A stretch of DNA of 57,987 nt, filler included, from Catajapyx aquilonaris (GCA_000934665.2; 2 parts of 2 records of this genome joined end to end with filler, not necessarily neighbours in it), one strand, 5' to 3'; shown: positions 16,417-52,676, numbered from the whole stretch's first letter. Numbers and translations are program-made. The notes: generated by a model from the letters alone, not told the origin.

Positions 16417-18046
16417 TGTGTCCACAAGGTCCTGGCCTTCGCGGACGATATTACCATCATCGCAGACTCACCCCAGGAGCTTCAGGCCCAGATGGAGACG
16501 GTAGGTAGCGAAGGAGGCGGCCCGGGTTTCCATCTATGTCAACCCGGGCAAGACTGCCACTATCCACCTGTGTGGCAGAATCCCAGTTGGGACAAAGCCG
16601 ACCGCCTTTACTTTGGAAGGATATCAGGTCAGATGTCTCAGGGACGGGGAATCCACAAATTTCTTGGGGAAGCCCGTGGGCTTTCAGGTTGTCCCTCCGT
16701 ACGCCAAGATAGAAGAATTTATCTTGATAGGTCGGAAAATTCTTACCTCTGAACTGGCACCGTGGCAGAGGCTCGATGCAATACGAACTTTTGTGTATCC
16801 AGCTATGGTATACCCCATGCGCATGGGCCTGCATCCGAAGACTTCATGGGCCGAGTAGGACCGGGAGTTACGCCCACTAATCAAGAAGACCCTGTTTCTC
16901 CCAACCAGATCCGCCAATGAGTACTTGTATGGCTCGCGCCGGGCTCGTGCGTGTGGGATCCCTGTTACTGCGGAGGAGTCGGATCTCTTCATCATTGATT
17001 CCGCATTCAAACTGCTAACCTCCCCGGACGACGAGGTGGCCCACACTGCTTTTGATAACCTGACGACAACAGTGTGTGGCCGTCTTGGTAAGGGGAAGAG
17101 CGATCTGGATGTTGCGGAGTTTCTGTCGGGGAGAAACGACGGGCCGTACAGGTTGGACACCAATCGAAGGTTCAACATGTGGACCTCGGCGAGGGTGGCT
17201 TCAACCAGGAGCCAGGTGAAGTGGTCCTTCTTGAACGGGGTCCCTGCCTTGGCTCGGGGAGAGGCCAAGGTCATACCGAGGATGAGGAAGAAGGTGGTGG
17301 CAACTTTGAGGAGGGTGGCCCAGCAGCAGAAGATCCAGCCGCTGGAAGACCTGCCTAGCCAAGGGAAGGTGATGCAGTGCGTCACTCTTGACTCCAGCTC
17401 CTGCCACTTCATTGCTGAAGGGAAATTCACAAGATTCGCTGACTGGCGGTTCATTCATCGAGCCCGCCTAGGGGTTGTTCCCCTTCGCGGTGCTCAGGCG
17501 TGGACTGATCAGTCGGATGACAAAAATGCAGGAGATGTGGCGGCTCAATTGAAACCCTGCCGCACGTGGTTTGCCACTGCAATGCCCATCTCTGAAGCTT
17601 ACCGGCGACGACATGATGCGATTTTGGAGAGTTTGAAGAAGGCGGATGGCTACAAGCACTCCACCATGTCTTGTAACCAGACTGTGATTCCTGGTTCCCC
17701 CTTGCGGCCAGACCTGGTCATCTCCCAGGGTGCTGATATTCTGATGATCCTTGATGTCACTACTTCATTCGAGAACCGTCCGGACGCGTTGGCGGAGGCC
17801 CGAAGGCTGAAGGAAGTGAAGTATGCGGCCATTGCTGACCATTATCGGCCCAACTTCAGGAGGGTCACAGTAGATGCTATTGTAGTTGGGGCCTTGGGAA
17901 GCTGGGACCCAGCTAATGATCGGGTAATGAGAAGGCTCTGCGGCAGATCATATCTGAAGCTGTTGAAGAAGTTGTGTGTCAGCGACTGCCTGCGGTGGTC
18001 ACGCGATGTCTACATCGAGCACATCACTGGTCCATGGGTGTCATAA
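16417..18046 (+). mobile_element. 5'-truncated, degenerate RLE non-LTR retrotransposon (Utopia/NeSL-like): RT C-terminal part, CCHC finger, restriction-like endonuclease
   Basis: LAFADD (RT), FADWRFIHRARL, CCHC finger KCRRCGGSIETLPHVVCHC in a shifted frame, RRRHDAI, LRPDLV, DVTTSFEN, KEVKY, VGALGSWDP, LCVSD...WSRDVYIEHITG; frameshifts and an in-frame TAG at 16856. Confidence 0.9.
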
Positions 18047-19820: not shown

Positions 19821-20593
19821 CTTCTTTTTCCTCTTCGTTTCTCTCTCCATCTGTCCCCAGCGGCGGATTTCCCATTAGGCACAATAGGCACTGGCCTATA
19901 GGGGCGGCTGCGAGTTGCAATAAATAATATTTCTCTTATACAATAATAAGAAATGATGGCGAGATCACAAAGAAAAGCAAATTGTTGACAGCTAGATTTG
20001 CCACTACATGCAGAAAAGGTAATTGCCAAAGGGCGGCCGCCCTCTGGGCGGCCATAACTTTCTATGTAATACTTCAAAAATAAAATAACATTAAATCAGC
20101 GGTTCTCAAACTGTGGAGCGCGCCAGAGGGGGGGGGGGAATCCAAAAATTATGTGACTCGAAACAGAAAAAAAGTCGCACTGATTAGTAAGAACTAGGGG
20201 AGACCGGGGCACAGTGGACCACTTTTGCACATTTGAATTTTTATATACCTACCTGTTATACCTACACCCAATATTTTCAGGCATGGTGGAGATACTCCTT
20301 GGTAATATAAGTCACTACTACATTCACAGGAAGTGCCATCCTTTTGGCTTTAAAAAAAATTAGAAGCGACCCCCTGCAAATGGTCCACTGTACCCCGATA
20401 GGTGGGGCGCAGTGGTCCGAAAGTGATTGGGACCCCTTATTCACACAAGAAGTTTATTATCATTGCCTAACATTTTTTTTACAGCTGTTCATTTTGAGGA
20501 CTGTGTCAACATCACAGTTTTGCCCCTTTTTTTCTACCTAATTCACATTTTTAAAATCATTGTCTCACTTTTTTTTTTTTTTTTTTACAGCTG

Positions 20594-21529
20594 TTACACA
20601 TCTTCAATTGGGATGAGGAGCCAACGAGGAGTGGCTTGACGATTTTTACGGACGGTTCGGTCGCTAAATATGGGAGAGCCGGAGGAGCCGTAGTGAGCTG
20701 CAATGAGGCTGGGAACATTTCTTTCTTGGAGAACATCCCTTACGTGGTTGGAGCAGATATCTTTCAAGTAGAACTTGCAACCATCCTGAGGGCCTTAGAA
20801 CTGGTGGCAGAACTGACCTCCGACACGACTGAACCGGTGCTAGTGGTGTCAGACTGTCTGTCGGCCCTTTATGCCATTTCTAATCCCGGAAATACGTGGC
20901 CCCTGGCAGTTAGGGCTCGTGACCTGCTAAGGAGTTCCCGGACGGAAGTTCGCCTCTGCTGGGTGAGGGGCCACTCCGGTACGCCAGGCAACGAGATTGC
21001 GGACAGGGAAGCCAGGAGAGCATCGGAGATTACTACCGGACGACAATTATTTCTCCCTGAAACGGCGGGGACTATGCAGGGTCGGATCTGGAGGGATACT
21101 TTGATCGGCTGGCAGGAGGCTTGGACGGCTCTGAAGGACAGGTGGTACCAGGGCTTCTTACCAGTTGTCTCGACATCCCGTCACCTTCATGGCCACATAG
21201 CCCACCTCGTTTCTGGCCATGGCCCGTACAGGGTCTACCTAGCTAGGTTCGGACTCCTTTCTGAAGAGGAACAAGTTTGGGGTGAACTTTGCCCGTGCGG
21301 TGATGGAGCTCAGGATGCGGCACATATCCTTCGTAATTGTACCATGCCAGAGATTCAGAGGGCCAGGGGGGAATTGATGAGGTCGTCAATCTCTGTGGGC
21401 CTGGGTTGGCCATGTTCAAAGAGCGCTTTGGTGACACAATTGTTTGGCCCTTTTAATGACTTTTGCCTTCGGGTTGAAGCTGTATTGAAGGAAGAAAATT
21501 CATGGCGGTCCTAACCTCCGACCTGATGA

Positions 21530-32166: not shown

Positions 32167-33452
32167 TTAATCTTCCGAAAGTATAATGTCAGGACGGATC
32201 TCTCTCACCTTATCTGTCACAATGTTAACACTGTCTTCGACGCATTGATCCGTATCCAGCTTCATTACCTTGAGATTCTTGCAGCCTGTCAGGATTTTCT
32301 CAAAGGAATCCATGTAATCCTTGACCTTCCCACACTTCCTGAGGTCAAGTTCGGTCAAGCAGTGACAGTTCATAGCGACTGCATCGAGTGCATCGCCTTG
32401 AAACCTGTCAAAATTAATCATGGAAAAACTCTCAAGGCGGCTGGAAACTGGGTGGTTCAGAAGAGAAACGATCACGTCTTCTGTAGTTAACGGGCAGAAA
32501 CTTGGAGCTTTGATGTGAAGACTTCGAAGGTTGGGCAAGCCGCCTAACATTTCAGTGAGACGTTCAATGGTGTCCCGATAAGCGTAGTTGATCCTCAGTT
32601 CCACAACCTCATGACACTCTTGTAACAACGAGAAAGACTGCGGCAGGATGAGATGGGAGCTGATCTCAAGAACTCGGAGGTGACTAGCACTGCTCCTCAT
32701 CACCACTTCAGCATGCTGAAATGATTGGTACTTTGTCTGGCGGAACTCCTTCAGATTTTGATGCTGCCTGACTAGCGTATTGTCGACATCGATATCATCA
32801 TAGTCATAATCACAGAGGTGTAGTTTTTCCAGCTTGGCACATGGAGCAAATATGTCTATCACGTTCTTGGTGCGAGATCCTATTATATTGCAGTTGCAAA
32901 ATATGACCTCTCGCAACATGGGACACTTTAGGGTAATGTGTTCTAAAGGAACTTGCAAAATGAGCAGGTCCGTCAGCTGGAGTTTCTCCAACTTCGGACA
33001 GTTGTCGGCCGCTGCATCCAAAATATCGTTGTACACATGTCGGCCACCTTCATTCATCGGCAGCCCTTGGATAGCAAGTTCCTTCATGTACCCCTTACCT
33101 CTTAGCATCCCCGTAATCTCTTCAAGCGCCGGCATTCTAGAGCTCCAATTCAGTACCACTCTCCTCCATAGGGTTGGATAATCGCTCAGTCGTTTCCAGT
33201 CCATGCAAACCGGAGCCACACTCTCCATAACTTCCTGGTGACTCAGGTACGAAAATATTTGCAGCTTAACATGGTCCGGCAGCTTGGAAAACCGATCTTC
33301 ATTCTGTAGATGAGAGTATGCATATTAGAATCAGATCACATCATGTTTGTTCACTTAAATACCTTGGCTGCCCTAGCCGGCTCAGGTTTCTCCTTGTTAA
33401 ACTTCCTCTTTTTATTTGGAATGCCATCAGGAAGTGAGGAGCAGCCTGCCAT
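32167..33452 (-). CDS. F-box/LRR-repeat protein (exons 33452-33363 and 33303-32167)
   Basis: F-box FSKLPDHVKLQIFSYLSHQEVMESVAPVCMDWKRL followed by cysteine-containing LRRs (CPKLEKL, CPMLREV, CHCLTELDL); phase-0 GT-AG intron of 59 nt. Confidence 0.9.
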
Positions 33453-38518: not shown

Positions 38519-39117
38519 GAAATAATTATGGAAGTTACACAAACTTAACTGTGCCCATTCGAAGCCTGCATTTTTCGCCTTCCCAAAGAGAAAATAATAA
38601 TCGAACAGAAAAAAAAAGTCCGCCATATGCAAAATGATATCGATCGACAACTTATGAAGATCAATTTTTAAAAAAATCACTAATTAACAAAATTACATAC
38701 ACATAATTAGCCTTAATCGCTAATTAGCTATAGTCGCGTAGTAATTAATATTTTAAATATTGCACATTAAAAAAAACTATGCAAAAGACGATCCTACTAC
38801 TTATTAGTCGGTAGTATCACCTGTTGTCATATTTTCGCAGGAAATTTGTATGTAACTTGTAATCTCTAATTACAGCTTGTACTTGTAATAAAACAGTGCA
38901 CAGGTACAGTACATATGGTACACACTGTACGATGCCCAGTTCATATACAACACCTGTAAAGTAATTTAAGATTAGTTGATTTGCACTTAACCAGGTAGAG
39001 CATGAGGTTCATAATAATATATTACATTTTATATAATAATAATATATTACATTTTTGATATTATATTACAGTTTATATAATAATATATATACAATAGTTA
39101 CAGATTAAGTACGCAGC

Positions 39118-40161
39118 ATGTCGGACGGTGAGTTTGAGGACATCTGGGTGAAGGAGGAGTGTCTGGTTGACCCGCAAGAGCTGGCCGGACAGGACAAGTA
39201 CTTGTCAGCCACAGACGCTGGTGTGTGCCGCAGTGGCAAAGACGTACGGGCAAAGCGCAACCGGGGCGAGAACTGGAACCAGCAGGAGAAGGAAGACTTG
39301 TTCACGTGTGTCCGTAAGCACTTGGCAGCAATCGAGAGCAAGCTTGCGGACACGACCTCAATGAGACAGAAGCATCAGGCTTGGGATGACGTATACGACG
39401 CTTGGGTGGAGAAGCACGGTGCGAAAAGGTCGCTGAATCACGTCAAGGATATGTGGAGACGGATGAAGCAGAATGCGAACTTGGCCGTTACAAAGTACAA
39501 GTCTGGAGAAGAGCCGAAGACTGAGCCGAGCCGGTTGGACTGCACCGTGTACAGTGTGGTTGCGCAGGTTACGTCTTGCTACCAGTTGGTGCAAGAAGAC
39601 AACACTGCGGGTACGTCCGAGGAAAGTACAGATGCTGTTGAGAGGCTGCAATGTGCCGCACCCACACTGTAAGACTTGCTGTATTAGGCATGTAACATTT
39701 AATTAACACATGCGATTACAGCTTCACCGAGCCTGAAACGCCGCCATCTAAACCTATCGACCAGCGAACTGAGTCGCCTGAAGCAGTCATAAGGATTGAA
39801 GACACAACAATGCAGTTTCAACCAGTTGACGAACCGGACTGTCCAGCGTAAGCCTCTGCGTACAGTACATACTGTATATTACTTACATTTTCTGCCAATT
39901 TCCAGGCAGAAGAACCACCAAACCGGACCAACGTCGAAGAAGCGGACAAATCCGCTTCCGATGTCCGTGTACGAATCCGAAGCGCTGGAGTTGCTTCGTG
40001 CCAAAATTACGCTCGAGATGAAGCACATGAAGGCCGAACACAACATGCGACTGGCTGTGGGGAAGGCTCGGCTGGCAGCAGAAAAGACTCGACTGGCAGC
40101 AGAAAAGCAGCGGCGGGCATACTACGCTGCGAAAATGTGCTTGATGAACGAATCAGATTAA
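39118..40161 (+). CDS. Myb/SANT-like DNA-binding domain protein (MSANTD-type) with C-terminal coiled coil; exons 39118-39668, 39722-39847, 39907-40161
   Basis: RGENWNQQEKEDL...IESK...KHQAWDDV...RSLNHVKDMWRRMK; both phase-2 introns keep the frame open. Confidence 0.85.
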
Positions 40162-42244: not shown

Positions 42245-44504
42245 TTAGCTGTTCTTCTGCGGAACCTTGATGGTCACGTTCTTCACCTCTGTGTACGCTT
42301 GTAGCCCGTACTCACCCAGCTCACGACCGAACCCGGACATTTTGAAGCCGCCAAACGGAGCCTGAGCCGCAAACGCATCGTAACAGTTGACCCTGTAATT
42401 ATTTTAAAAAAGTATGTTTAATTAGCCGGAAACAACAACAACACAATCAGTAAAATTTGAAACAAATCTCTCTCACCATACAGTCCCGGCCTTTAATCCT
42501 TGGCTGAGATACAGCGCTTTGTCCAAATTCTGCGTGAAAACGGCTGCGGCAAGTCCATACACCGTGTTGTTGGCTCGCTCTAACAGCTGGTCCATATTAT
42601 TGAACCGCATTATCTGCTGGACTGGTCCGAATATCTCCTCCTGTGCGATCCGCATCCCGTCTTGAACCTCGGAAAACACGGTGGGCTGGATGAAGTAACC
42701 GCGGTCTCCGTATCTGGAGCCTCCAGTCAGCAGTTTGGCCCCGTCCTTTTTCCCGGATTCGATGAGATCTAGGATCTTCTCGAATTGCTCGCTGTCCACT
42801 TGCGGACCCTGCTGGACCTTGGGGTCAAATGGGTTGCCCACAGTGCGGCTCTTGGCCATGGACACGCTCTGTTCGACGAACTTGTCGTATATTGCGTCCT
42901 CGACGAATATGCGTGAACCTGCGCAACAGCATTGCCCCTGGAAATTCATGATCGTTTACATGGATCGCAGTGTATGACTGTGTCCGACCCATACCTGGTT
43001 GAAAAAAAGGCCAAAATGCGACATCTGAACAGCATAGTCGAGATCAGCGTCCTTCAGAATAATGTTGGGCGACTTCCCTCCCAGCTCCAGGGAGACTCGC
43101 TTCAGATTGCTCTTCCCCGACCCTTGCTGAATCAGGTGTCCCACTTGGGTCGATCCGGTGAATGCGATCTTGTCCACATCCATGTGTTCGGTTATGGCTT
43201 GTCCGGCTGTTGGCCCGTATCCTGGGATTATGTTAACGACACCGGGTGGAAATCCGGCTTCCTTGATCAGTTCTGCGACGTACAGGGCAGTCAGCGGTGT
43301 CTGCTCGGCTGGCTTCATCACGACGGTGTTGCCTGAAAGAAACTGGTCAAGTGTCTGCTACTGTTCATACTCATTGTGCTCACCAGTCGCCAGTGCTGGT
43401 CCCAGCTTCCAGGATTGCATCAGAAGTGGAAAGTTCCATGGGATAATCTGTCCGCAGACACCAACAGGCTCGTGCCGCGTGTACGTAAAGTACTGTCCAT
43501 CCACCGGGATGGTCTTTCCATGTATCTTGTCCGCCCACCCAGCATAGTAGCGCAGGACTCCGATGGACATGGGGACGTCCGCATTGTAGGCGTCAGCGAA
43601 CGGCTTTCCATTGTCCAGTGTCTCCAGGCTCTAAGAACAAACAATGCGGTCACACTGTAGGTCCAGCAACATGCCAACTTACAGCCAGGTACACCCGATC
43701 CCTCTCCATCAGGTCGGCCAGTCTGTTGAGCAGCACGCCACGGTTCGAAGCGTCCATAGTCCGCCACGGACTACCAAGCTTGAATGCATCTTTGGCCGCC
43801 CGGACAGCCACATCCACATCGGCCTGAAACAAAAGGTAGACATTCAACACTACTGCATGTAAATTGACCAATACAAATGCATTTATTAGTTTAGTTGTTC
43901 ATATTTTTATTAAGTTGTTTTTTTATGTAGGTTATGTAATTATTTTATTTAATAATTGCATACAAAGGGCGTTTACGGATACCCAATGTTTGTCCAAAAA
44001 GTCATGCCATGGCAAACAGGCCACTTCATAATTATGCAATGCCATGCATGCACCTTTGGCAATCCCAACTTGTATGTCTTAAGGGGACCCCAAGGCCAAG
44101 GTCTATTTATATTTGTTGTGCCAACAATTCCTGGCATGTGAGCATGCGAGCGCCTTAACCACGCCTTAACTTCATAGTTTTCCACACAATGCCTTTGGAA
44201 AAATTCAGGTTGTTATCGGATAAGCTCACCTTATCTCCTTCCTGAACATCAGCGATGGCTTCACCTGTCGCAGGGTTGATAGTCGGAAAAGTCTTGCCCG
44301 AAGCCGACTTGCGCCACTCGTTGTTGATAAAGATCTGCAATTGTCAGAAATGTACTTATTTTTAAGCGCCCACATTACGTAACATGTACTTACACCAGTG
44401 TAGAGCACTTCCGGATTGGTGTTTGGTGCGGGAAGAGCAGCAGTCGTGTACTTGTTGGCTAGTCGCATGGGTATGCCTGCGAACTTACTCAAAATGCGGT
44501 TCAT
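42245..44504 (-). CDS. ALDH2: aldehyde dehydrogenase, mitochondrial type (ALDH1/2 family)
   Basis: Presequence-like N-terminus, [63 protein letters not shown], ending KVPQKNS; GT-AG introns. Confidence 0.95.
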
Positions 44505-48197: not shown

Positions 48198-48270
48198 GCC
48201 TCGGTAGCGCAGTAGGTAGCGCGTCAGTCTCATAATCTGAAGGCCGTGAGTTCGATCCTCACCCGGGGCA
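48198..48270 (+). tRNA. tRNA-Met(CAT), elongator type
   Basis: GCCTCGGTAGCGCAGTAGGTAGCGCGTCAGTCTCATAATCTGAAGGCCGTGAGTTCGATCCTCACCCGGGGCA; cloverleaf with CAT anticodon, G1-C72 pair and TTC T-loop. Confidence 0.97.
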
Positions 48271-48284: not shown

Positions 48285-48521
48285 CGTTCTTTCCCCTTCG
48301 TCTTTTAATGTTCAATAATCATAATTATCATCGTCACTGATTTTTTTAGTAAGAAGCGGAATAATTTTTGCAATATTCTGCAAAGCCAAACCATGAATAC
48401 GCGATAAGGCGCGTTATCAACCACTGGACTCCGATAGCAGTGTAATAATAGACGTGGTTGTTCAGTGTATGTACTGTACATACGTTGGGTAGACAGCTGC
48501 TGTCAGTTGGATATAAGAATT

Positions 48522-51500
48522 ATGGAGGACAAGAGCATGTCGGACTTGCACGTCGCAGCTTTCCAAGGCTCTCTGACAACGGCCCAGACTTTGATTGACA
48601 ATGGACATGATGTGAACAAGAAGAGCAGGAGTGGTAAGACCCCCTTGATTGTCGCTGCTCGATATGGATATGAGCGAGTTTGTGACGTTCTTCTACATCA
48701 CAATGCCTTGATAGACATTGCAGACAACGATGAAAAGACAGCACTACATGTTGCTGCCGAGCATAACCACGAAAAGGTATGCCGCTTACTTTTAGACAAC
48801 GGCGCTGGTGTGAACAAGACGACCAAATTGGGCGACACTCCTCTTCATCTCGGTTCCGGTTCGATCAAAGTTGTCCAGCTTCTTTTGTCTAGAGGAGCCG
48901 ATTCGAGTATTGAGAACCTGGCTGGACAGACACCTTTGTCGAAGGCTGTTGAGAAGGACTGTACCATGGCGGTGAAGGTACTGGTCAGTCCAAGCGATAT
49001 GCACGTTGCTGCTGCAATCGGAGATGTTGATAGTGTTCAGAAGTACCTGAAGTCCGGTTGTGATGTTAACAAACGTAACGAGCAATCAGAGACGCCATTG
49101 ATTGTAGCGGCTAGGAATAACCAAGTGCAAGTCTGTCAGTTGCTTCTGAGTCAGCCATCATGCGATATTGACGCGCGTGGCGACGACGGAAGAGCCGCGT
49201 TACATGAATCGGCCAGAAACGGAAGCTTGGACGTATGCAAAATGTTGCTGGAAAAAGGTGCGACAGTTGACATCCGGACACACTCGTGCGACACACCCTT
49301 GCATTTCGCATCTCTTGCTAAGATGACAGATGTGATTAGGTTGCTGTTGAAGTACTCGGCTAATCCTCAGGCGATCAACGACAAGATGATCACACCAGCA
49401 GCACTCGCCAATTTGAAGGGTCGTCTTCAGGAACACAAGATGCTGATGGATCATTTGACTGATCGTGGAAAGACCAGGTGAAATGCCTGAAAATTTAAAG
49501 GAGTTAGGTAGCAGACGTGAAGCTGAAATTAGAGCCTCCGAGAGAGGTGCTCCTGCCTAAGGTCTGCCACTTTCCTCCTTTTAGTGACTTATCAGTATGT
49601 TCTTACTCCTTTTAGTGACTCATTGTCCTTACTCCTTTTAGTGACTAACTGTCAGTATAATTATGTTCTTACTCCTGTTAGTGACTAACTGTCAGTATAT
49701 GTTCTTACTCCTGTTAGTGACTAACTGTCAGTATATGTTCTTACTCCTGTTAGTGACTCATTGTCAGTGCGCTCTTACTCCTTTTAGTGACTCAATGTTC
49801 TTACTCCTTTTAGTGACATTGTCAGTACGTTCTTACTTCTTTTAGTGACTCATTATCAGCATGTTCTTACTTCTTTGAATGACTCAATGTGTTCTTGCTC
49901 ATTTAGTGGCTCAGTAGGTTCTTACTCCTTTTAGTGATTCAGTCTGCTAAACCTTACTCCTTCAGGTGACTCATGCCTTATCCTGATAGTGATTCAGTCT
50001 TCTTTTTCAGAAGCCACTTGTCGCCTCCGTCTGAGAAGCGTCTCAGACTCTCGTCTCAGCATCCCTCTACAACAGATTTTGTCTCCATGTATGCGACAAA
50101 GTTCAACCATAAAGAATATTTGGGACACGGATCGTACGGGAAGGTCATGAAGGCTGAGTCTAAACTGGATGGAGTTCTGTATGCAATAAAGAGAGTCAGA
50201 CTCTCTGCAGATCCAGGCCTGAAGGAGTTAGTCCTGAGGGAGGTGGTGGCTTTGGCCAGACTGAACCACCCGCATGTGGTGAGGTACTACAACTCTTGGG
50301 AGGAGAGTCCGAGTGCCTGGAAGCATCTGGAGTTTGATTCATCACTGTCAGCATGCGACAGCTCGACTCCAGAAGGACGTGAAGCACTGGAGAGAGCATC
50401 GCTGTATTACTCCTCAGGATCGTCCACGGGACCTACAACCAACTTGTTGTATATGCAACTAGAATTATGCCACAGACACACGCTAGGACACAGGCTGGAC
50501 CAAGGATTGAGGCTCTACAAGCACAGGACACTCACATTGTTCAATCAAATAGCACAGGGCGTGTGCTACATACATCAGGAACGCTTCATCCATCGTGATC
50601 TTAAGCCTCATAATATATTGTTCACACTGGATGGAAATGTGATAAAGATTGGTGATTTTGGTCTCAGCACCTTTGCTGCTGGTGTCAGAGTGTCTTCAGT
50701 GGCTGGGAAAGATGTTGAGAAGACGGACATTATTGGCACAAAGCTGTACATGGCTCCTGAGCAGATGGATGGAAACAACAATGATCGCAAGTCTGACGTC
50801 TTTTCCATGGGGCTTATACTGTACGAGATGTTACACCCTTTTGGAGCAGACAAGGACCAGCGTATTCATGTGTTCGAGTCGCTTCGTAACCAGCAACATT
50901 TTCCTGAACAATTCCTTCAGCACAATCCGGCTGAAGCAGACTTGATCATGAAGATGCTGCTGTCTGATCCATCCTCACGTGTTTCCTCACTATTTGTGGT
51001 GAAACAACTTGAGAAGCTTCTGGAGACCATGAGACAGTTGGACACCAAGCTATTTCTGAAGGCTTGCAAAGGTGGACAGTTGGACACGGTCCGCCATTGG
51101 GTGGACAGCCAGGGTGTGGACATTGAGAAGGTGATGGGTGGTGGAGGATGGCCTGCAACACATTTGGCAGCAAAAGGTGGTCATCGTGATGTCCTCTCGT
51201 TTCTGCTGGACCGAGGTGCTGATGTGGACGGACTTGACGGGGAACATCGGACGCCTCTACACTGGGCAGCCTATTCTGGACATGAAGAAACTGTGAAGAT
51301 GCTGCTGGACAGAGGAGCATCAGTGTTGAAGAAGGACATTCAGGGCAACACACCAGAAGAGTGGGCCAGAAGACATAGACGACACTTCATGAGCAAGTTG
51401 CTGCATCATCAGTTGGAAGACCTAAAGTTGGACTCAAACCAGAAACAGGATGAAGTGGGCAATGATACCAGGCGGTTTCTGGCTGCTTGCAGATCTTCTA

Positions 51501-52185
51501 ATTCGGATACACTGCAGGTGGTTAAGGATTTGGTGGACAAATGTGGAGGTGTCCAAAGGTGGTATGGACGGCCAGGTCAGGAAGGTCAAAGTGGACTTCA
51601 CCTGGTCGCACGATCTGGAAATGACGAGTTGGTGAAGTACTTGCTAGGAGAAGGTTGGCCTGTTGACCATCAGGTGACCAACGGAGAAACTCCTCTCCAT
51701 GAGGCTGTCCGAAATGGACACTTGACCACTTCAGAGATCCTGATAAGACATGGAGGAAATGTGCGAGCAAAAGCCACAATTGGGAACGAGCCTTTGCATT
51801 TGGTAACTGACGGAGGGAATGTCGAGTTGGCACAGCTGTTGGTGGACAATGGAGCTGATGTCCACGCTGAAGGAAGGAGGAATCGGACGCCTCTTCATCG
51901 GGCAGCCACCATCGGTCCTATGGAGATTGTTGAATTCTTGGTGTCAAAAGGGGCTGATCCAAGAGCTGTGGACATGGATGGTCACACACCCATTGATCTT
52001 GCAGAGTTGAAGAAGCAAGTGGAGAAGGCTTATTATCTGAAGGTGAGTTGATGGACATTGCCGCTGAATCCACCAGTAAAAAAATAATTGAATATTTTCC
52101 TTCAATATTACAGAGCGTCCAAGTTGAACCTGAGATTACCTCACGTCCTCACGAGACAGTTCAAATGGATATGGACCAATCATAA
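48522..52185 (+). CDS. predicted ankyrin-repeat / eIF2-alpha-kinase-like / ankyrin-repeat protein, ~1019 aa (exons 48522-49477, 50011-52042, 52114-52185)
   Basis: Tandem TPLH/TALH ankyrin repeats; kinase motifs LGHGSYGKV, YAIKRV, REV..LARLNHPHVVRYYNSW, LYMQLELC, HRDLKPHN, KIGDFGL, GTKLYMAPE; further ankyrin repeats; phase-2 donor and phase-2 acceptor match. Domains are high confidence, the exon join is inferred. Confidence 0.8.
49570..49975. repeat. ~30-40-bp minisatellite within the predicted intron
   Basis: Recurrent TTCTTACTCCT(T/G)TTAGTGACT(C/A)A. Confidence 0.9.
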
Positions 52186-52676
52186 CTGTTCTTGGTTGAA
52201 CTCATTGCTAATTTGCAGAAAAATCAATCAATCAATCGATGACTGACTGACTGACCTACCAATTATTTATTGATAAATAAATAAATAAATGATCAGTCAG
52301 TCAGTAACTACTCTGTTCTTCTTGTGTTGAACTACTGCTAATTCGCAGAAAAATCATTCAATCAATGATTGACCAACTGACTGATTGATTGATTTTTCTA
52401 CGAATTACCAGTAGTTCAACACAAGAAGAACAGATCGTAGCTATTGACTAACCGCCTCACTGATCAATGACTGATTGATGTGTCCTATTGTCATGGCTGT
52501 AAAATAATGTCCTATTGTCACCAATCAATCAATCAATCAATTATTGGTCAGTCAGTCAGTTAGTCAATAACTATAGTCTACTCTGTTTTCTTTTTGTGCT
52601 GAAATCGGTTGAAATATTGCTAATTTAAAATCAATCAATCAATCAATGACTGACTAACCGACTGATCGATTGTTGC

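Follow-up and report, generated by a model that had tools for sequence, protein, structure and literature searches.

A predicted gene on the + strand of a stretch of Catajapyx aquilonaris DNA (GCA_000934665.2; 57,987 nucleotides, comprising two parts of two records of the genome joined end to end with filler, and called the window below) encodes a divergent kinase of the eIF2-alpha kinase family placed between two blocks of ankyrin repeats. The kinase family itself is known, and the searches given below found no description of the combination elsewhere. The gene lies at 48.4-52.2 kb, where two long open reading frames (ORFs; read from stop to stop in the standard code) follow one another, the first coding for ankyrin repeats and the second for a kinase plus further ankyrin repeats (Table 1); open frames of 347 and 693 codons with the Pfam scores given below are far beyond chance. 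The two frames probably belong to one intact gene of three exons with a soluble product of about 1019 residues, as predicted from the splice signals described below. The explanation that we favour, with moderate confidence, is that of a single ankyrin-flanked eIF2-alpha-type kinase gene whose product would act as a cytosolic switch.

The ankyrin-kinase-ankyrin architecture had been proposed in an earlier note on this DNA and is recovered by Pfam on both exons. Exon 1 matches ankyrin families only (Ank at 2.5e-54 in 6 stretches, Ank_2 at 4.1e-53), and exon 2 matches Pkinase at 1.4e-48 (residues 32-326; residue numbers for the kinase and the C-terminal module are those of the exon 2 translation, P0121), followed by Ank_2 at 4.3e-51 (4 stretches) and Ank at 6.9e-45 (5 stretches). 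From the N- to the C-terminus, the predicted protein is composed of a two-array ankyrin module, a linker of ~50 residues, the kinase domain and a second two-array ankyrin module. The N-terminal module contains two arrays, at residues ~5-145 and ~157-290, with about four repeats apiece, and ends in a long C-terminal helix; in the single-sequence AlphaFold model of exon 1, with a mean predicted local distance difference test score (pLDDT) of 68.9, four helix pairs are followed by a low-confidence break at 141-157, four further helix pairs and a helix at 292-316. The repeat count of the C-terminal module (Table 1) comes from a manual parse of the translation, and this half of the exon 2 model is of low confidence because the alignment supplied covered the kinase only. 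The two modules align colinearly with the inter-array break included (residues 16-304 against 355-672, 26% identity, E 2e-25; in the DNA, 48567-49433 against 51074-52027), which may reflect an internal duplication of the two-array module, the similarity being no stronger than generic ankyrin likeness. No dsRBD, Z-alpha, RWD, HisRS-like or PERK luminal domain was detected in the gene product by Pfam or by seed matches, these being the sensors of the canonical kinases with which the earlier note had contrasted the gene; the Ank families and Pkinase are the only Pfam families present. A transmembrane segment is likewise absent from the joined protein by a script scan, the top 19-residue hydropathy being 1.15.

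Judged by sequence, fold, signature columns and profiles, the kinase is a member, though a divergent one, of the eIF2-alpha kinase family, and the sequence comparisons place it in none of the four named eIF2-alpha kinases. First, the best matches in a sequence search of the PDB are PERK (3qd2, 2e-51), GCN2 (5.5e-45) and HRI (1.2e-37). The AlphaFold model of exon 2, built with a 40-row alignment, has pLDDT values of mostly ~88-98 per 10-residue block in the kinase, and a Foldseek search with this kinase model returns PERK kinase domains at ranks 1-13 (TM-score to target 0.86-0.89), followed by GCN2 and PKR. Next, all kinase motifs named by the earlier note are found in the translation, these being LGHGSYGKV, YAIK, the alphaC Glu, HRDLKPHN, DFG, GTKLYMAPE, HPHVVRYYNSWEE and LLYMQLELC. 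The catalytic residues K60, E77, D196, N201 and D215 are all present and every invariant column is kept in the alignment; from these kept residues the kinase is judged catalytically complete. The Ser-rich insert (Table 1) is flanked by the family columns W96/E98 on one side and L146/Q149/C153 on the other, as seen in the alignment of 229 rows described below.

Database searches returned relatives of the same kind at low identity. From 5.8 billion proteins, a word-indexed search listed 120 matches at 21-46% identity; HMMER, run exhaustively on 1.84 billion cluster representatives, gave 1451 proteins at E <=1e-30, of which the best 150, at 29-46% identity, were compared. The named top matches of the word search are PERK-like, PKR or eIF2-alpha kinase 1 or 4, and the named matches near the top of both lists are all of PERK, PKR, GCN2 or HRI type, at no more than 46% identity. 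Among proteins with a single kinase domain, the top matches are PERK-like proteins of arthropods (Danaus, Palaemon, mites), transcripts without a name and vertebrate PKR. No relative above 46% identity occurs among the matches listed by the word search or among the best 150 of the 1451 HMMER proteins. The nine proteins with the top HMMER E-values were considered as a possible special subfamily and rejected, as each has at least two kinase domains, mostly in fused tandem gene models of fish PKR, and the E-values are so strong because the scores of several kinase domains add up. Seven of the nine carry dsRNA-binding motifs (six fish records and one frog record), and the remaining two comprise a mite record under the name eIF2-alpha kinase 3 and a bird protein in which four kinase domains are found. 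In a metagenome scan with the kinase domain, 141 of the 203 matched stretches encode a relative; the best 80 of them (79 distinct loci, 25-39% identity) include no close relative, and viral contigs gave no pattern match.

The family assignment is further supported by signature columns and profiles. Signature columns were taken from an alignment of 229 kinase-domain units as those with at least 80% agreement in 106 labelled family units and at most 35% in 63 units outside the clade, the label being a PERK-luminal, dsRBD, Z-alpha, RWD or HisRS-like domain in the protein. The query keeps 21 of the 29 family-specific columns, compared to a median of 27 (5th percentile 19, minimum 16) in 165 other family rows and a median of 2 (maximum 13) in the 63 outgroup rows, all of these counts referring to columns derived from rows picked by similarity to the query. 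The misses are uneven, and 17 of the 19 columns outside the C-lobe are kept, including K51, D53, R91-Y92, W96, E98, the LxQxxxC after the insert, Gly214 before DFG, Thr220 and Thr238. The columns of K51 and D53, both in the N-lobe, are presumably those of the dimer salt bridge of PKR, in line with a regulation of the dimer type. Finally, a family profile scores the query at ~310 bits and an outgroup-kinase profile at ~221, and the difference stays at +87 to +90 over five folds, where held-out family members have a median of +190 and a minimum of +65 (n=106) and the outgroup a maximum of -7 (n=63). With the PDB and Foldseek matches, the 21 of 29 columns and a profile difference of +89 bits, the membership in the eIF2-alpha kinase family claimed in the earlier note is borne out.

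The position within the family was examined in an IQ-TREE phylogeny of 53 rows (5 of the 58 chosen had no usable unit) and 339 columns under LG+C20. The family is separated from the four outgroup rows with support of 99/99 and the query falls in a 25-row PERK+PKR clade with 96/98, values from a bootstrap that had not fully settled. This clade is a trichotomy of the query, vertebrate PKR/PKZ (8 rows, 99/99) and PERK (16 rows, 90/94), with the GCN2 and HRI-like rows outside it. In this tree and in the FastTree phylogeny described below, the rows nearest to the query by path length are PERK, and the query kinase probably lies on the PERK/PKR side of the family.

In the favoured explanation, the canonical sensors of the family would have been lost, with ankyrin modules on both sides of the kinase in their place. 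By homology with PKR, PERK and GCN2, activation would proceed by back-to-back dimerisation and autophosphorylation of the conserved activation-loop Thr238. Thr occupies the corresponding column (1507) in 92% of the eIF2-alpha kinases with a domain label (n=106) and in 30% of the outgroup rows (n=63), and the query has T there as well. The ankyrin modules would control the kinase through a bound protein partner or ligand, by either holding the kinase off or bringing two copies together. That this ligand comes from a pathogen or from stress, as proposed in the earlier note, is conjecture. The substrate would be Ser51 of eIF2-alpha, to which, by analogy with the family, we give about an even chance, and the protein would then constitute a cytosolic PKR-like translational shut-off switch, a role that is plausible by the same analogy.

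Several observations weigh against this explanation. The query stands at the divergent edge of the family, as only one of the 106 held-out members has a smaller profile margin, and its end branch in the IQ-TREE phylogeny is long (1.58). In a FastTree phylogeny of all 229 rows, it falls inside the 166-row family group beside a PERK+HRI clade, with a support of only 67. In the approximately unbiased (AU) test, a topology that unites the other 48 family rows and leaves the query out is not rejected (log-likelihood difference 5.28, p 0.33; 4 outgroup rows), so the tree alone does not fix the position of the query. In the kinase phylogeny that the earlier note had named as a check, the free tree places the query inside the family, but the AU value of 0.33 allows a basal position as well. 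No orthologue was found in the protein searches or the metagenome scan. As the database has no close relative of the host, a lineage-specific kinase is indistinguishable from one in a poorly sampled lineage. Splicing and expression are both deduced from the sequence. The remaining points concern the C-lobe, in which the query keeps 4 of 10 columns, the family median being 9 and values of 4 or lower being found in only 5 of the 165 rows. Six of the eight misses fall in these ten C-lobe columns around helix alphaG (Y257N, V261S, F271Y, T279A, E283Q and P324V), and Ala279 stands in a family Thr column where 145 of the 165 relatives have T, 13 have S and not one has A. Aligned to the PKR rows, the columns of Ala279 and Gln283 presumably correspond to Thr487 and Glu490 of human PKR, in a numbering based in part on the residue names of PMC11556786. 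In that deep mutational scan of human PKR, Thr487 is among the few highly constrained sites (PMC11556786).

These C-lobe changes favour a rival explanation that likewise has one gene, but in which the kinase has moved off eIF2-alpha: helix alphaG would have been remodelled after duplication from a PERK/PKR-type ancestor, and the product would be a signalling kinase with another substrate, perhaps recruited by the ankyrin modules, instead of a shut-off switch for translation. According to the same scan, Thr487 of PKR stabilises helix alphaG and induces a change in eIF2-alpha that is needed for phosphorylation (PMC11556786). Besides the Ala at the Thr487-equivalent position, the query has Gln283 in a family Glu column (E in 159 and Q in 2 of the 165 relatives), one extra residue in the helix alphaG segment between the columns of Ala279 and Gln283, and Asn at the near-invariant column 257, which is Tyr in 151 of the 165 relatives. 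The alphaG-like segment that the earlier note counted among the family hallmarks is thus present but not typical, with Ala for Thr, Gln for Glu and one residue too many. However, the N-lobe, catalytic and activation-loop signatures are kept, with the 17 of 19 columns outside the C-lobe, and the rows named eIF2-alpha kinase 1 and several bird PKR rows likewise keep only 3-6 of the 10 C-lobe columns. Helix alphaG of PKR is, moreover, described in the scan as otherwise tolerant of variation, and escape from a poxvirus pseudosubstrate is concentrated there (PMC11556786). The divergence of the C-lobe, weighed against the like losses in relatives, leaves eIF2-alpha as the substrate at the even chance given above, and we hold the change of substrate to be a serious, if unlikely, alternative to the favoured explanation.

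A second rival concerns the gene structure. The start codon of the predicted gene is the ATG at 48522, whose context is good, positions -3 and +4 being A and G. The donor of intron 1 (CAG/GTGAAATG, exon 1 ending at 49477) has its GT exactly at the close of the first ORF, and the acceptor (GTGATTCAGTCTTCTTTTTCAG/AAG, exon 2 beginning at 50011) lies 41 nt past the opening of the second and is preceded by a tract with pyrimidines at 11 of 13 positions. The AG of exon 1 and the A of exon 2 make up an Arg codon, and the frame of the kinase ORF continues. At the possible intron 2, the donor is AAG/GTGAGTTG (exon 2 ending at 52042) and the acceptor ...TTCCTTCAATATTACAG/AGC (exon 3 beginning at 52114); if this intron were retained, the frame would close three codons on, at 52051. 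The three exons joined by script give 3060 nt and 1019 codons with a single, terminal stop, and the donor, acceptor, phase, 1019-codon frame and last exon at 52114-52185 described in the earlier note are all present. In the rival explanation, which we regard as rather improbable, there would be two genes, one coding for ankyrin repeats only and ending at the TGA at 49479-49481, and a separate kinase-ankyrin gene starting from the ATG at 49973 or from a Met 12 residues before the glycine loop, the match of the splice sites being fortuitous. The first ORF does have a stop of its own, the link between the ORFs is deduced from the sequence, in-frame ATGs precede the kinase domain, and the phase match of the two intron 1 sites alone has a chance of 1 in 3. 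Against two genes stand the GT placed exactly at the end of the ORF, the 11 of 13 pyrimidines before the acceptor and the poor context of both in-frame ATGs ahead of the kinase, which have pyrimidines at -3; the sole space for a promoter of a second gene would, in addition, be the 533-nt interval taken up by a minisatellite.

It is still less probable that the locus belongs to a fast-evolving family as a duplicate that is unexpressed or was inactivated recently, open only by recency and without a present function, as the long branch and the failure of the searches to find an orthologue might suggest, given a ~3 kb open frame in which all catalytic residues and the splice and poly(A) signals are intact.

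Among the relatives compared, the combination of ankyrin repeats with an eIF2-alpha-type kinase was not encountered outside this gene. When the exon 1 ankyrin module was compared by phmmer with 279 proteins, which include the best 150 HMMER relatives and the 120 word-search matches, it matched only exon 2 of the same gene and one further protein, P0116. None of the 150 closest kinase relatives (the best 150 of 1451) carries ankyrin repeats, and P0116, which is bacterial, is the only ankyrin-bearing protein among the 120 word-search matches. This Ser/Thr kinase from Pirellulales, at 31% identity, was considered as a relative of the architecture and rejected. No description of a protein combining ankyrin with an eIF2-alpha kinase was found in the full-text literature, subscription journals lying outside the search. 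The accessible portion of a 2018 survey of the eIF2-alpha kinase family assigns EIF2AK2 to chordates only and contains no mention of ankyrin (PMC5851622). The remark of the earlier note that the architecture was not familiar as a described family, though it might be one, agrees with the lack of ankyrin in the 150 closest relatives and with the literature search. In the ESM Atlas, the kinase-ankyrin part falls near generic clusters of ANKK1, RIPK4, DAPK1, TNNI3K, TEX14 and an arthropod 'IRE2-like' protein and no eIF2-alpha kinase cluster, matches that serve as leads only.

The four canonical eIF2-alpha kinases each combine one catalytic domain with a different sensor. PERK (EIF2AK3) is the closest solved structure by both sequence and fold and shares the beta4-beta5 insert and the N-lobe signature with the query. 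In contrast to PERK, the query has no luminal domain (51 other rows match the luminal seed) and no transmembrane segment, has ankyrin repeats on both sides of the kinase, stands outside the PERK clade in the trichotomy with PERK and PKR, and has an atypical helix alphaG. PKR (EIF2AK2) and the fish PKZ resemble the query as soluble kinases of the PERK/PKR branch with an exchanged N-terminal sensor, dsRBD in PKR and Z-alpha in PKZ, whereas the query contains neither of these domains, is not nested within the vertebrate PKR rows, a clade by themselves at 99/99, and has its presumed ankyrin sensor flanking the kinase on both sides. Unlike GCN2 (EIF2AK4), it lacks RWD, pseudokinase and HisRS-like domains, and the tree groups the GCN2 rows apart from it. 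RNase L shares the layout of N-terminal ankyrin repeats followed by a kinase fold, but the query has no KEN or RNase domain in Pfam, and its kinase is, from the residues kept, catalytically complete and of the eIF2-alpha kinase type. Among solved structures, the best 60 of the 405 matches to the exon 1 ankyrin module are ankyrins, NOMPC, DARPins and similar proteins and do not include RNase L. The parallel with RNase L drawn in the earlier note accordingly extends to the layout, but not to the KEN or RNase domain, and the ankyrin likeness is generic. ANKK1/RIPK4, DAPK1, TNNI3K and TEX14 also have ankyrin repeats and a kinase in one polypeptide and are nearest by language-model features; they belong, however, to other kinase families, and none of them is found among the 150 closest relatives of the query kinase.

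Other unusual partners of such kinase domains were seen among the relatives. In P0146, an unnamed or invertebrate relative, a PERK/PKR-type kinase is combined with DUF4559, and in P0019, from the rotifer Adineta, with PF00656, as given by precomputed annotation. Module exchange around the kinase domain is therefore not unique to the query gene, and around PERK/PKR-type kinase domains it may be common outside vertebrates, to judge from these sequences.

If the favoured explanation is true, ankyrin repeats would represent a fifth type of sensor on an eIF2-alpha kinase, module swapping of the PKR/PKZ kind would also occur outside vertebrates, and arthropod translation control would have an unexplored stress or antiviral input. 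To our knowledge, no PKR is known in arthropods. A bolder form of the idea, which we consider doubtful, is that arthropods, being without PKR, include a lineage that has independently built a PKR-like cytosolic family of innate-immune kinases with interchangeable ankyrin sensors of pathogens or stress. In this scenario the clamp on both sides of the kinase would be an eIF2-alpha shut-off device released or dimerised by a ligand, and the odd helix alphaG a scar of an arms race with viral pseudosubstrates. The altered helix alphaG would also serve as a natural experiment on what part of the eIF2-alpha docking surface can be dispensed with. The eIF2-alpha kinase family is usually regarded as having a single substrate, and if the kinase has left eIF2-alpha, it would be an example of neofunctionalisation within the family.

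Table 1 Features of the ankyrin-kinase-ankyrin gene, in positions of the window
Feature	Position	Strand	Description
Ankyrin ORF	48438-49481	+	347 codons, stop to stop
Exon 1	48522..49477	+	ATG and N-terminal ankyrin module, in 318 complete codons and 2 further bases
Predicted intron 1	49478..50010	+	533 nt, phase 2; GT donor, pyrimidine-rich CAG acceptor
Minisatellite	49575..49943	+	Takes up most of intron 1, in units of 26-36 nt (Tandem Repeats Finder)
Kinase and ankyrin ORF	49970-52051	+	693 codons
Exon 2	50011..52042	+	2032 nt; codes for the linker, the whole kinase domain and the C-terminal ankyrin module
Protein kinase domain	50105..50989	+	Residues 32-326; Pfam Pkinase 1.4e-48
Ser-rich insert	50306..50443	+	46 residues (~99-144), between beta4 and beta5, at the variable-insert site of eIF2-alpha kinases
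Activation segment, DFG-APE	50654..50761	+	Residues 215-250; includes Thr238, in the activation-loop Thr column specific to the family
AlphaF-alphaG linker and helix alphaG	50837..50893	+	Residues 276-294; helix 281-294 in the model
C-terminal ankyrin module	51029..52042	+	Residues ~340-677; ~3.5-repeat array, charged linker, ~5.5-repeat array
Third ORF	51997-52185	+	62 codons
Possible intron 2	52043..52113	+	71 nt, phase 0; GTGAGT donor, pyrimidine-rich CAG acceptor (ATTACAG/AGC)
Possible exon 3	52114..52185	+	23 codons plus stop; in-frame ORF
Two AATAAA poly(A) signals in overlapping register	52276..52289	+	~90 nt past the exon 3 stop; script scan

The minisatellite of intron 1 appears to be confined to this locus within the window. 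A 23-mer of its unit occurs in 10 copies with up to 3 mismatches, all in 49600-49941, with 0 expected, and no copy at this tolerance is present elsewhere in the whole window. Every unit bears an acceptor-like CTTACTCCTTTTAG motif (CTTAC...TTTTAG), so that about ten copies stand just upstream of the predicted acceptor, and it is possible that the repeated motifs act as decoy 3' splice sites. Used as acceptors, the AGs of the minisatellite would hit a stop before 49970 if in the frame of the kinase, and in the other two frames would miss the kinase. An alternative in-frame AG acceptor, with a weaker pyrimidine tract, is located at 49988-49989, 21 nt upstream of the main one, and would lengthen the linker by 7 residues. 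Ahead of the gene, a tRNA-Met gene (anticodon CAT) is found at 48198-48270 on the same + strand, about 250 bp upstream of the ATG, and the promoter and 5' untranslated region of the kinase gene must therefore be accommodated within this gap or else extend across the tRNA gene.

The window is eukaryotic DNA with introns, of ~36-53% G+C, and the neighbours of the kinase gene are ordinary host genes and repeats. Retroelement remains are present at 16859-18046 (+), 20555-21514 (+) and about 21.9-23.3 kb, and include two ORFs, of which one (319 codons) carries an RNase H domain and the other (395 codons) has no Pfam match; runs of N, which mark assembly gaps, are found around 22-23 kb. A single-exon ORF of 385 codons for an F-box/leucine-rich repeat protein occupies 32170-33324 (-), and an ORF with a Myb/SANT-like DNA-binding domain (PF13873) lies at 39109-39669 (+). 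Closer to the kinase gene, two exons of an aldehyde dehydrogenase are found at 42476-43357 (-), with Pfam Aldedh scores of 5e-57 and 3e-46. The named matches to an exon of this gene reach at most 75% identity, with Daphnia and Zootermopsis at the top followed by other arthropods, tardigrades, molluscs and corals, which suggests a host without a close annotated relative in the protein collection.

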